Origin: Abditibacteriaceae bacterium
Lineage (GTDB): Bacteria > Armatimonadota > Abditibacteriia > Abditibacteriales > Abditibacteriaceae
Direction: 5' to 3'
NCBI GenBank assembly: GCA_031372065.1
Contig: JANMKN010000009.1
Span: 1-15,738 of the forward strand
Length of the DNA: 15,738 nt
Position numbers and translations under genes: made by a program. Shown in pieces: positions 1 to 3,641 of the stretch (position 1 is the stretch's first letter; every line of letters starts with the position of its first letter). A model generated the notes under the pieces. It searched no databases and was not told where the DNA came from. It saw nothing but the letters and a program-made list of their open reading frames with translations.

Positions 1-75
1 CGCCAAGCCGATGACTTTGCCTTCGGGCCAGCCGCGCTGTTTGTGATTTTTTCCTGTTATGATTTTTTCGTCCAT
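1..75 (-). CDS. 5' end of a gene running off the window; probable RtcB-family RNA ligase (tentative)
   Basis: ATG at 75-73, frame open to the window edge: MDEKIITGKNHKQRGWPEGKVIGLA. From memory this resembles the N-terminal extension of Deinococcus/Bacteroidetes-type RtcB (xGKxxxxxGx(P)EGKxxGLA). Only 25 aa are visible and the RBS is weak (AGG at 82-80). Confidence 0.45.
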   Translation of the reverse strand, partial: MDEKIITGKNHKQRGWPEGKVIGLA

Positions 76-87
76 AAAACCTAAATC

Positions 88-130
88 AAAAAAAAAAAGG
101 CGGGGGTGTCTAAAAAGCGACACCCGCGCC
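88..130 (-). terminator. Intrinsic terminator (attenuator) upstream of the partial gene
   Basis: On the minus strand GGCGCGGGTGTC (130-119), an 8-nt loop and GACACCCCCGCC (110-99) give 11/12 bp, followed by 11 U (98-88). It ends 12 nt before the ATG at 75. Confidence 0.85.
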
Positions 131-133
131 GGA

Positions 134-149
134 ACAGCTATAAAGCTGT
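134..149. other. Small hairpin between the leader stop codon and the terminator
   Basis: Perfect 6-bp inverted repeat ACAGCT-ataa-AGCTGT. Confidence 0.4.
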
Positions 150-153
150 CAGG

Positions 154-300
154 TCATAGCCCGAAAATGGTATGATTTACACGATTTGGGGCCAGTTGGC
201 AGGTTTGGTGTCGCGCTCTTTGCGTTGAACGCCGAGCGAGCCGATGATTTATGCAATAAATGCAAGAGTGCGTCTGGTTGTCAGTCCGATGAGTTTTCAT
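154..300 (-). CDS. Putative leader peptide (uORF), 48 aa
   Basis: AGAGGAGGTT (315-306) then CGCGC then ATG at 300, with TGA at 156-154. Translation: MKTHRTDNQTHSCIYCINHRLARRSTQRARHQTCQLAPNRVNHTIFGL. It lies between the promoter and the terminator and is not in the supplied ORF track. Confidence 0.7.
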   Translation of the reverse strand: MKTHRTDNQTHSCIYCINHRLARRSTQRARHQTCQLAPNRVNHTIFGL

Positions 301-338
301 GCGCGAACCTCCTCTGAATTGGGCCGTCTCGTGCGGCG

Positions 339-381
339 AATTGAAACTATACCGTGCGGTTTCAATTTTGTCAACAAAATT
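339..381. promoter_or_regulatory. Two palindromes overlapping the promoter (candidate operators)
   Basis: AATTGAAAC-N11-GTTTCAATT (339-367, perfect 9 bp) and AATTTTG-tcaa-CAAAATT (364-381, perfect 7 bp, around the -35 box). Confidence 0.5.
346..374 (-). promoter_or_regulatory. Sigma70-type promoter driving the leader and the downstream gene
   Basis: -35 TTGACA (374-369), 17-bp spacer, -10 TATAGT (351-346). Predicted start near 340, about 25 nt before the leader SD. Confidence 0.8.
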
Positions 382-455: not shown

Positions 456-890
456 ATGATTGTGCTTTTTTCGCCGTTGGGTTTGTCCTACGGCACGCTT
501 TATTCGGCAATTCTTTCGGTGCGCCCGCAACGCGTGGTGGTGATTACCTCGCCGCAGGCGGCCAATCTGCTGCATTCGGCGGTGGACGCGGCGCGCTTTT
601 TTTATAGCGGATTCGCTGTGGAAACGCACATTTTGAGTGACCCCTTTGCGGGCTTTAGTGAAGGTCGCGCCTTGGCGCCCGACTTGGCCCTGCGCGCTGG
701 TGAAATCAATGTGGTCAATCTCACTGGCGGCACCACTGTTTTGCAGGATTGCGCCCGTTCCATTGCCGATATTTTGCGCGAGGCCAACAAAAATGTGCAG
801 GAAGTTGCCGTTGTGGATGGCCGCGATAGCGATGAACAGGCACGTCAGCCACTGGTGTTGCGCCATCTGGTTGAAGTGCCTGCTCTTTGA
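456..890 (+). CDS. Stand-alone CARF (CRISPR-associated Rossmann fold)-like protein, possible ring nuclease or nucleotide sensor
   Basis: 144 aa. It has the N-terminal strand-loop LFSPLGLSYG (CARF motif I), a second strand RVVVITS, and VVNLTGGTT matching the CARF [D/N]xTGG motif II. No effector or HTH domain is attached. Confidence 0.7.
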   Translation: MIVLFSPLGLSYGTLYSAILSVRPQRVVVITSPQAANLLHSAVDAARFFYSGFAVETHILSDPFAGFSEGRALAPDLALRAGEINVVNLTGGTTVLQDCARSIADILREANKNVQEVAVVDGRDSDEQARQPLVLRHLVEVPAL

Positions 891-1055: not shown

Positions 1056-3641
1056 ATGTGGCAACGATTTACCGAACGGGCGCGGCGGGTGATTTTGCTG
1101 GGGCAGGAAGAAGCCGGCAAGATGAATTCCAGCCACGTCGGGACGGAGCATTTGTTATTGGGTCTGGTGCGAGAAAACGAAGGCGTGGCCGCGCAGGTGC
1201 TCACCAAAATGGGCGTTTCGCTGCAACGCGTTCGCGAAGAGATCGAAGACGAAATTGATCACACCGACGAACCAGCCGGCAGTGAACCGAAACTCACGCC
1301 GCGCGCCAAGCGCGTGCTGGAACTGGCCGCTGATGAAGCGCGACGGATGCGACACAATTACATCGGCACCGAGCATCTGCTTTTGGCATTGCTGCGCGAA
1401 AAAGATGGCGTCGCCGCCAATGTTTTGCGCAAAATGGGCCTGAATTTGGAAAAAGCGCGCCATCAAGTGATGGAATATCTCGGCCCCGAATCGCCGCAGG
1501 CTGAAAAAGCGGGCAGTGATCGGGAAAAAGAGCGCGAACGCGGCACTGGCGGGCCGGGTGGACGCGGCGCACGTTCGCAAACACCCGCGCTTGACCAGTT
1601 TGGTCGCGACATTAATCAATTGGCGCTCGACGGCAAACTTGATCCGGTCATTGGAAGACAAGCGCAAATTGAGCGCACCATCCAGATTCTTTGCCGCCGC
1701 ACCAAAAACAATCCCGTTTTGGTCGGCGAACCCGGTGTCGGCAAAACTGCCATTGTCGAAGGCCTCGCGCAGCGCATCGTGGCGCATGATGTGCCCGAAC
1801 CGCTGATTGACAAAAAAATCATCGCGCTTGACCTTGCTACCGTTGTGGCGGGCACCAAATATCGCGGCGAATTTGAAGAGCGCATGAAGCGTATCATGCA
1901 CGAAATTCGCAACAGCAACGGCAAAATTATCGTGTTCATTGACGAATTGCACACGATTATCGGCGCTGGTGCTGCCGAAGGCGCCATTGATGCCTCGAAT
2001 ATGCTGAAACCGGCCTTGGCGCGCGGCGAAATGCGTTGCATCGGCGCGACCACGCTCGATGAATATCGCAAATACCTCGAAAAATCCGGCGCGCTCGAAC
2101 GGCGTTTTCAGATGGTTTTGGTGCCCGAACCAAATGCCGAAGATGCGCTTGAAATCATGAAGGGCCTGCGCCCGCGCTATGAAGAATTTCATGGCGTGAA
2201 AATTACCGACGAAGCGTTGAACGAAGCCGTAGATTTGTCGCAGCGTTACATCAATTCGCGCCAATTGCCCGACAAAGCCATTGACCTCATTGACGAAGCC
2301 GGAAGCCGCGTGAAACTGCGCGTCGCTTTGCCGCCGCGCGAACTGCGCGAGTTGCAAAAGCAACTGGACGAACTCAATTTGGAAAAAGAAGCCGCCGTCA
2401 ACAACGACGAATACGAAAAAGCCGCCGAACTGCGTGACCGCGCGCAAGAACTCGAAAAGAAGCTCGAAAACGCGCAGGAAACGTGGCAAAGCCAGCGCAG
2501 CGAAACCGACGAGCAACCAACTGTCACCGAAGATGACATCGCGCAAATCGTCAGCGATTGGACGGGCGTGCCGGTGCGCCGCTTGACCGAAGCCGAAACC
2601 GCCAAACTGCTGCGCATGGAAGACGAGTTGCACCATCGCGTCATCGGTCAGGAAGAAGCGATCAAAATCGTTTCCAAAGCCGTGCGGCGTGGGCGCGCGG
2701 GCCTCAAAGACCCGAAACGTCCCACCGGCGTGTTCATGTTCGTTGGCCCGACCGGTGTCGGCAAAACCGAACTGGCGCGCGCTTTGGCCGAGTTTATGTT
2801 CGACGACGAATCGGCTCTCATTCGCCTCGACATGAGTGAGTATTCGGAACACTTCAACGTGTCACGGATGCTGGGTTCACCTCCCGGTTATGTCGGCTAC
2901 GATGAAGGCGGGCAATTGACCGAATCGGTGCGGCGCCGTCCGTATTCGATTGTGCTGTTTGACGAAATCGAAAAGGCGCACCCGGAGATTTTCAATACGC
3001 TGTTGCAAATCTTCGACGATGGCCGCCTGACCGATGCGCAGGGCCGCATTGTGGACTTCAAAAACACGATTATCATCATGACGAGCAACGTCGGCACATC
3101 GGGCCTCGATAAAAGCCTTGGTTTGCGCGACCTCTCCACCAGCGGCCAAAGTGCTGATGCGGCTTACAACACCATGAAAAGTCGCGTGATGGAAGCGTAT
3201 TCGCGGATGTTCCGTCCCGAATTCCGCAACCGTTTGGACGAGGTGATTGTGTTCCATCACCTGACGCACGCGGAAATTTTGCAGATCGTGGATTTGATGT
3301 CGAAGCGTGTGGAAAACGAATTGGCGCGGCGCGAAATGAAGTTGGAATTTCTGCAAGGCGCCAAAGAGTTGCTCGCCAAAGAAGGCTACGACCGGCAGTT
3401 CGGTGCGCGTCCGCTCCGTCGCGCCGTGCAGCGCCTCATCGAAGACCCTCTCGCCGAGCGCATCCTGATGGGCGACTTTAAAGCGGGCGATACCATTTAC
3501 GTGGACGCCCAAAACGGCGAAACCGTCTTCACCACCGAGTTGCCGACGCCGCTCGATGAAGTTCTCGAACCCATCGGCGAACCCGCAGGTGATGTGTCGG
3601 ACGACGACGAAGAACGCCTCTCGGCCATGATGGACGAGTAA
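1056..3641 (+). CDS. clpC: ATP-dependent Clp protease ATP-binding subunit ClpC
   Basis: 861 aa, RBS AAGGAG at 1043-1048. Two Clp_N repeats ([18 protein letters not shown]), Walker A GEPGVGKT and GPTGVGKT, Walker B VFIDE and VLFDE, a short UVR-type middle domain ([11 protein letters not shown]), pore loops KYRG and GYVG, and an LGL ClpP-docking-like loop. Confidence 0.96.

Follow-up and report, generated by a model that had tools for sequence, protein, structure and literature searches.

The PA5471.1 leader of Pseudomonas aeruginosa reportedly comprises 13 codons. As far as the sources drawn on here describe it, it resembles the leader reported below in having a constitutive promoter, a translated leader and a terminator (PMC12057347, PMC13041342), and in that ribosome stalling switches on armZ (PA5471), a gene of the RtcB family. 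A tRNA-repair defect, loss of cca, is reported there as an inducer (PMC12057347, PMC13041342), and an early stop, the Q3 amber mutation, turns armZ on (PMC13041342). The whiB7/wblC leaders of mycobacteria, within the part of the account used, are alike in their long uORF of variable length and sequence, their response to general translation stress and their choice between terminator and antiterminator; they are unlike in controlling a transcription factor, in an alanine-enriched uORF and in the raised expression that follows loss of the start codon (PMC10274678). The rli80/hflXr, bmrB/bmrCD and vmlR systems of Listeria and Bacillus share, in partial descriptions, a logic of anti-antiterminator, antiterminator and terminator (PMC6310831, PMC13689557, PMC5314783). 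A start-codon mutation gives the OFF state in rli80/hflXr (PMC6310831). Leaders of this type appear in these descriptions as short and equipped with a stalling motif (RLR in rli80); no motif is conserved here.

For the regulation of RtcB in bacteria without RtcR, the leader described below offers a compact and testable answer. The rtcR gene is a CARF-domain gene and the divergent neighbour of rtcBA. In Salmonella and E. coli, according to the portion of the source considered, RtcR-rtcBA likewise ties the expression of rtcB to RNA damage (PMC7790460). The locus studied here has a sigma70-type promoter with attenuation in place of the sigma54 activator RtcR, and its CARF protein is stand-alone. 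An RtcR domain was detected in none of the 27 genomes of the family comparison, with E. coli serving as the positive control.

The window, the whole stretch of DNA that was analyzed, is 15,738 nt long and is the start of contig C405. It opens with the first codons of rtcB on the minus strand, preceded by a leader which, at a probability of about 0.68, is a conserved ribosome-dependent transcription attenuator that would use the RBS of its own uORF as the OFF latch. The features of the locus are as follows.

456-890, plus strand: stand-alone CARF-fold protein of 144 aa, divergent from the rtcB leader
374-346, minus strand: sigma70-type promoter TTGACA-17-TATAGT, agreeing with the consensus at 11 of 12 positions
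315-301, minus strand: ribosome-binding site of the uORF, with the SD AGAGGAGGTT at 315-306 and the predicted anti-antiterminator strand, segment 1, at 313-301
300-154, minus strand: leader uORF of 48 codons, from ATG at 300 to TGA at 154; frame and stop position conserved, peptide sequence not
216-198, minus strand: segment 2, approximately codons 29-34; predicted partner either the RBS (OFF) or the terminator 5' arm (ON)
194-157, minus strand: hairpin at the 3' end of the uORF, a predicted fold inside the predicted antiterminator junction
150-133, minus strand: other junction hairpin, downstream of the stop codon and upstream of the terminator, a predicted fold
130-88, minus strand: intrinsic terminator, with the hairpin at 130-99 (-20.9 kcal/mol) and the U tract at 98-88
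130-117 and 110-99, minus strand: terminator arms, the 5' arm being segment 3 and the 3' arm segment 4
75-1, minus strand: rtcB (RNA ligase), first 25 codons; the ORF leaves the contig, and a full 476-aa copy is on contig C398

The promoter, SD, 48-codon frame, terminator and the ATG at 75 had been listed in an earlier note on this DNA, and every segment quoted there is present at the position reported. Judged by its sequence, the locus has the promoter-uORF-terminator arrangement by which putative ribosome-dependent transcription attenuators are recognized. Positions 1-1500 of the window contain 2 promoter-like sites, versus 0.8 in shuffled sequences, and transcription would start near position 340 on the minus strand. 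The folding energy of the 340-88 RNA has z = -2.9. The uORF stop is separated from the terminator by 23 nt. The segment 2 strand is the same in the relatives G001 and G002, both of which also have a counterpart of the 150-133 hairpin with changed sequence; hairpins resembling 194-157 were seen by eye, uncounted, at the uORF stop in most relatives.

Conservation was assessed in 27 genomes, probably Abditibacteriaceae, each of which holds this rtcB type; among named records, those that have the closest RtcB together with this terminator belong mostly to Abditibacteriaceae. The related genomes are not independent. Promoter, SD, uORF and terminator precede rtcB in 26 of the 27 genomes (25 parsed automatically and G014 by hand, one locus having been dropped as a duplicate row), and G007 was the sole genome among the 27 examined without the cassette. 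A near-consensus promoter lies upstream of the uORF in the 25 genomes parsed automatically. The first in-frame stop is located 18-49 nt upstream of the terminator in 26/26 genomes and within 18-32 nt in 23 of them. A stop at 15-50 nt from the terminator, an interval set post hoc when the data had already been seen, occurs in 26/26 uORFs against 3.3 expected and in 6/52 of the other frames. Selection for the frame and stop position of the putative uORF is supported at the sequence level. The uORFs of the family have 30-48 codons. With 27-48 codons, no conserved residues and this stop-to-terminator distance, the leader is unlike the shorter PA5471.1. The peptides do not align across genera, and differences between close genome pairs are mostly amino-acid-changing. 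The amino-acid diversity of the 26 uORFs is not raised (mean excess -0.24 and -0.12 against two nulls); Trp occurs in 3/26, and alanine, at a ratio of 0.94, is not enriched.

Beyond the family, 73 distant rtcB loci were considered, 6 of 79 having been skipped for too little upstream DNA. A terminator was found in 5 of them at a threshold of -12 kcal, at which AT-rich terminators may be missed, and the cassette in 1, a Ktedonobacterales genome. Among 169 Ktedonobacteria-class genomes, 42 have this rtcB type, and 25 of the best 30 loci have a terminator. The stop lies 15-44 nt before the terminator in 18/18 Ktedonobacteria leaders with a single SD-start candidate; in the remaining 7 of the 25 the start was picked among several candidates. 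A profile built from the Ktedonobacteria leaders matches Abditibacteriaceae terminators (best E = 1e-8), its top match in the genome studied here being the overlapping copy on C398 (E = 0.018). The Ktedonobacteria cassette is homologous to that of the family. The Abditibacteriaceae and Ktedonobacteria groups are sisters in a quick RtcB tree (SH-aLRT 84, unstarred), beside Anaerolineae sequences. The cassette travels with rtcB and not with the flanking genes, and rtcB and leader were likely transferred jointly, the direction being either way.

The antiterminator was examined by folding and by comparison. In RNA ending before the terminator 3' arm, 214-207 pairs with 124-117 at P = 0.97. In the minimum-energy fold this helix is continued by pairing of 201-198 with 130-127, which encloses two hairpins; the same fold is predicted for G001 and G002. 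The helix 2:3 drawn in the earlier note is supported by this probability and by its retention in the two closest relatives. The covariation check of the helix was positive in the Ktedonobacteria leaders, whereas the energy tests in the own family were negative. A contiguous uORF-arm helix is better than in shuffles in 14/25 Ktedonobacteria leaders. In their MAFFT alignment, with pairs selected from those same sequences, 78% of cells are paired, versus 71% after shuffling (0/500) and 33-52% in slid controls, and there are 23 two-sided changes versus 12.8 when shuffled; the covarying antiterminator spans 10-15 bp. Energy and helix-length tests of the family antiterminator against shuffles were positive in 2/26, 3/27 and 0/27 cases. 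The arm prefers its own uORF over others only in Ktedonobacteria (p = 1e-4, against p = 0.44 in the own family). In 17/27 family loci, a set that includes one added metagenome locus, the arm heptamer finds at least 6 of 7 Watson-Crick matches in its own uORF, against 5.8 expected. Two arm types favor their own leaders (7/10 vs 3/10 and 9/11 vs 2/11), which is essentially one evolutionary contrast.

The segment that would oppose this helix is the RBS. As long as the terminator arm has not been transcribed, the partner of 216-201 is 313-301, the SD and spacer of the uORF itself; 10.7 pairs are expected for this helix in the window. When the full-length RNA is folded to minimum energy, the RBS helix and the terminator occur together. 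For the window alone, neither of the two alternative helices of segment 2 is significant (p = 0.23 and 0.57). The RBS-uORF duplex is better than in shuffles in 9/27 family and 2/25 Ktedonobacteria leaders, with 1 and 1 in the control window; with 18-nt windows the counts are 10/27 and 4/25. The RBS favors its own uORF over others by -2.39 kcal/mol in the family (permutation p = 5e-5) and by -2.09 kcal/mol in Ktedonobacteria (permutation p = 1e-4), near-duplicates having been removed so that 21/27 and 21/25 representatives were kept. In a sliding window the signal is strong only at starts from ATG-19 to -7 in the family and from ATG-22 to -13 in Ktedonobacteria. The partner of the RBS overlaps segment 2 in both phyla, and joint RBS-plus-arm windows end mostly 6-46 nt upstream of the stop. 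In folded context the RBS helix has at least 6 pairs in 18/27 family and 19/25 Ktedonobacteria leaders and exceeds the shuffled values in 22/27 and 20/25; it is weak (<6 pairs) in 9/27 family leaders, part of genus g2, and in 6/25 Ktedonobacteria leaders. An anti-antiterminator helix 1:2 is thereby predicted, with the RBS as strand 1. As segment 2 has its conserved partner in the SD/start region, the sensing zone would be the RBS and early uORF, not four particular codons.

The leader would operate as follows. With the RBS (313-301) vacant, either since no ribosome has loaded or since the ribosome is already at the stop, segment 2 (216-201) would pair back to it; the terminator at 130-99 would then form and re-initiation would be damped. 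A ribosome stalled on or close to the start, or queued ribosomes reaching the RBS, would leave segment 2 free to capture the emerging terminator 5' arm, and RNA polymerase would read into rtcB. The signal would be that ribosomes fail to advance across about 30 unconstrained codons, and not one amino acid; possible causes of the stall are cut tRNA or rRNA, ribosome antibiotics and starvation. The choice would be kinetic, the finished terminator always being the most stable fold.

In the computed energies the full-length terminator is favored by 6.4-24.3 kcal/mol in 26/26 free family RNAs and likewise at every ribosome position, and it has P of at least 0.99 in the full-length RNA of the window. 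The gap in the window is -8.3 kcal/mol in free RNA, -6 to -7 with a ribosome on codons 1-4, where it narrows by just about 2 kcal/mol, -15 to -16 on codons 29-31 and -13 to -15 at the stop. With the terminator favored at equilibrium, the switch has to be kinetic. Once the RNA extends to the terminator loop, helix 2:3 has P = 0.97 without a ribosome and 0.85 when one occupies the stop; since it forms even then, the OFF state needs helix 1:2 to be kinetically trapped. The modeled energies at the ribosome positions fit the proposed direction, and folding alone does not show switching.

The main competitor, which we consider improbable, is a switch of the whiB7 or PA5471.1 type, with the antiterminator as default, an RBS helix that merely limits initiation, and termination only after complete translation, so that untranslated RNA would be ON. 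The P = 0.97 of helix 2:3 in free RNA that stops short of the 3' arm agrees with it, as does the resemblance of the uORFs to those of whiB7 in their variability in length and sequence. The precedents, to the extent they are described, point the same way: start-codon loss raises whiB7 (PMC10274678) and Q3 amber raises ArmZ (PMC13041342). Against it, in each of the two phyla the strand pairing with the RBS overlaps segment 2, and this pairing precedes transcription of the arm; moreover, a model without the latch has no clear route by which a stop-bound ribosome would free the arm, the partner being about 55 nt upstream. The RBS latch and this competitor differ in what happens when initiation fails. 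The latch predicts OFF without initiation, hence at start loss a response like that of rli80, whereas PA5471.1 and whiB7, in their partial descriptions, go ON; for PA5471.1 this is a comparison by description and not by sequence. The precedent of PA5471.1 invoked in the earlier note resembles the leader in general attenuator type and behaves the other way upon an early stop, which gives ON there. The literature searched gave no description of this leader. The leader is also set apart from rli80, bmrB and vmlR, by what their partial descriptions contain, in that its strands are about 90 nt apart and segment 1 is the RBS itself.

It is very unlikely that the leader is a trp-like switch which senses a stall over codons 10-13, as the earlier note had proposed by taking these codons as segment 1. 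That helix (272-262 with 223-212) is possible on paper, at -10.7 kcal/mol, but has P of at most 0.01 in free nascent RNA; only a ribosome placed at codon 20 raises P to 0.49-0.66. The matching duplex has just -3.6 kcal/mol in G002 and -7.5 in G001. Own-leader pairing is not significant in family windows starting from ATG-4 to ATG+8, a scan in which codons 10-13 lie outside. Of the proposal in the earlier note, the three-helix logic fits, including termination in the absence of translation, and its segment 1 is unsupported. Nor is the leader an amino-acid attenuator of the trp or his type, as the peptides are unaligned across genera and no tandem control codons and no conserved run of them are kept in the family uORFs.

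Equally slight is the chance of a steric action without an alternative helix, in which stop read-through or frameshifting would carry the ribosome onto the terminator arm and the leader would sense mistranslation. The tight stop-to-terminator spacing would suit this, as would the lack of significance by energy of the family's own antiterminator, whereas the homologous Ktedonobacteria leaders carry the covarying antiterminator, and the specificity between RBS and segment 2 would have no role.

Still less credible is an ordinary terminator behind an independent small gene or small RNA, with rtcB expressed by leak or from another promoter. In its favor, the terminator is strong and is the preferred fold at equilibrium, and relatives with longer spacers could have a second promoter. 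Against it, the peptide is unconserved and the differences between close pairs mostly change the amino acid, the cassette accompanies rtcB and not its flanking genes, the 23-nt gap between hairpin and rtcB ATG in the window is without a promoter-like site, and the Rfam riboswitch, T-box and leader covariance models gave 0 matches in the window at gathering score.

Divergently from the leader lies the gene at 456-890. A Pfam search of its protein gave no match. Its structural model (pLDDT 92.7) has CARF proteins throughout the listed Foldseek top matches, the best being Csm6 (E = 2e-7), and a profile match to Can2 (E = 1.8e-4) and the Atlas also point to CARF; by this model the product has a CARF Rossmann fold. 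The gene is present in 20/27 family genomes, in 14 of these directly divergent from the leader and in 3 more within about 10 kb, versus strong Cas10 matches in 2/27. Distant homologues of this protein frequently form the C-terminal domain of proteins with about 570 aa, some of which contain other CARF domains; such fusions would fit a ring-nuclease role instead. The gene was not found in 169 Ktedonobacteria-class genomes; therefore the attenuator does not need it. That this protein senses broken RNA with 2',3'-cyclic phosphate ends, as the CARF of RtcR does, and acts on the leader or its ribosome is hardly to be expected: the CARF fold, the divergent position in 14/20 genomes having the gene, the rarity of strong Cas10 matches (just 2/27 genomes, none in the own genome) and the binding of such tRNA halves by the RtcR CARF in the part of the source used (PMC7790460) favor it, whereas the Ktedonobacteria-class genomes keep the cassette without the gene, 7/27 family genomes also lack it, and the protein is a single domain without a DNA- or RNA-binding output domain, for which the binding role is hypothetical.

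Downstream of the CARF gene, 1056-3641 on the plus strand carries an AAA+ chaperone gene, which we take from its sequence to be of the ClpC type; in the relative G001 the chaperone gene is directly divergent from the leader and the CARF gene is missing.

If the RBS-latch mechanism is true, it would represent an RtcR-independent control of RNA repair in which ribosome failure itself reports RNA damage. Its design rule would be unusual, with the RBS as latch, a stop about 22 nt upstream of the terminator and an irrelevant peptide, and a 250-nt element like the rtcB leader would serve as a general reporter of translation stress. As the kind of switch is known from PA5471.1, whiB7 and hflXr, no new principle is gained. 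The CARF-only neighbor is a candidate non-CRISPR reader of broken RNA. A wider scheme is doubtful. In it the leader would be a sequence-free sensor of ribosome traffic: the RBS as anti-antiterminator would admit one ribosome, re-latch after it has finished and open upon a jam in the first approximately 30 codons. The leader would have moved with rtcB between Ktedonobacteria and Abditibacteriaceae and would replace RtcR, joined in Abditibacteriaceae by a CRISPR-independent stand-alone CARF protein that senses or clears cyclic-phosphate RNA ends.

The assignment of the RtcB-type gene made in the earlier note is confirmed by the copy on C398, which matches PF01139 with 274.6 bits over model positions 1-423 of 426; the first 25 residues of that copy agree with the window at 23/25. 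The models of the PrfH-associated RtcB/ArmZ subfamily score below their cut-offs (TIGR03073, 130.5 vs 271.8 bits; PRK09588, 162.3 vs 407), which places this rtcB outside the PrfH-linked subfamily. No prfH-like gene was seen downstream of rtcB in 12 loci inspected by eye. In five family genomes, G022, G017, G020, G016 and G014 (L035-L039), the rtcB Pfam match is split in two within frames of about 720-810 aa, which suggests inteins. The rtcB frame is apparently broken in G002 (C8, approximately 1719057-1720144; open frames of 282 and 228 aa) and in G020 (C268, approximately 4603; a separate 82-aa tail), which appears to be sequencing error or a true frameshift.

The end of C398 overlaps the window by 133 nt at 91% identity (window 1-133 with C398 2509-2649). 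Bases of about 40-111 lie at the contig end, and bases 1-110 of the window differ from C398 by 8 substitutions, in 6 of which the window base copies its neighbor; the C398 base never does. At positions 93 and 103, C398 and the relative G002 agree and the window differs, so miscalled bases at the contig end, or else strain variation, probably account for the U11 run and the stem mismatch. The U run at 98-88 noted earlier does exist, its count of 11 being probably in part miscalled, and the real terminator is inferred to be stronger than the version in the window. The final 10 nt of C398 are like the spacer of the relative G003 and unlike the window, so the assembly may contain a mixture of two leader variants.

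A REP-like palindromic repeat with dozens of partial copies genome-wide occupies 400-450 of the window, and other palindromic elements occur between terminator and rtcB start in several relatives, where the spacer ranges from 19 to >200 nt. The Ktedonobacteria leaders (L171-L200) often have extended -10 promoters (TGnTA..T), with the SD preceded by a longer, structured 5' stretch, and several of their uORFs end in Arg-rich runs. A scan of the own 6.14-Mb genome for promoter, SD, uORF and terminator returned 4 matches, the rtcB leader among them. The three others, C374:22321 (minus), C211:7797 (minus) and C139:2961 (plus), have 20, 37 and 52 codons with stops 18-25 nt upstream of the terminator, and the protein following the C374 cassette is, by its sequence, presumably a glutamine amidotransferase/peptidase C26.
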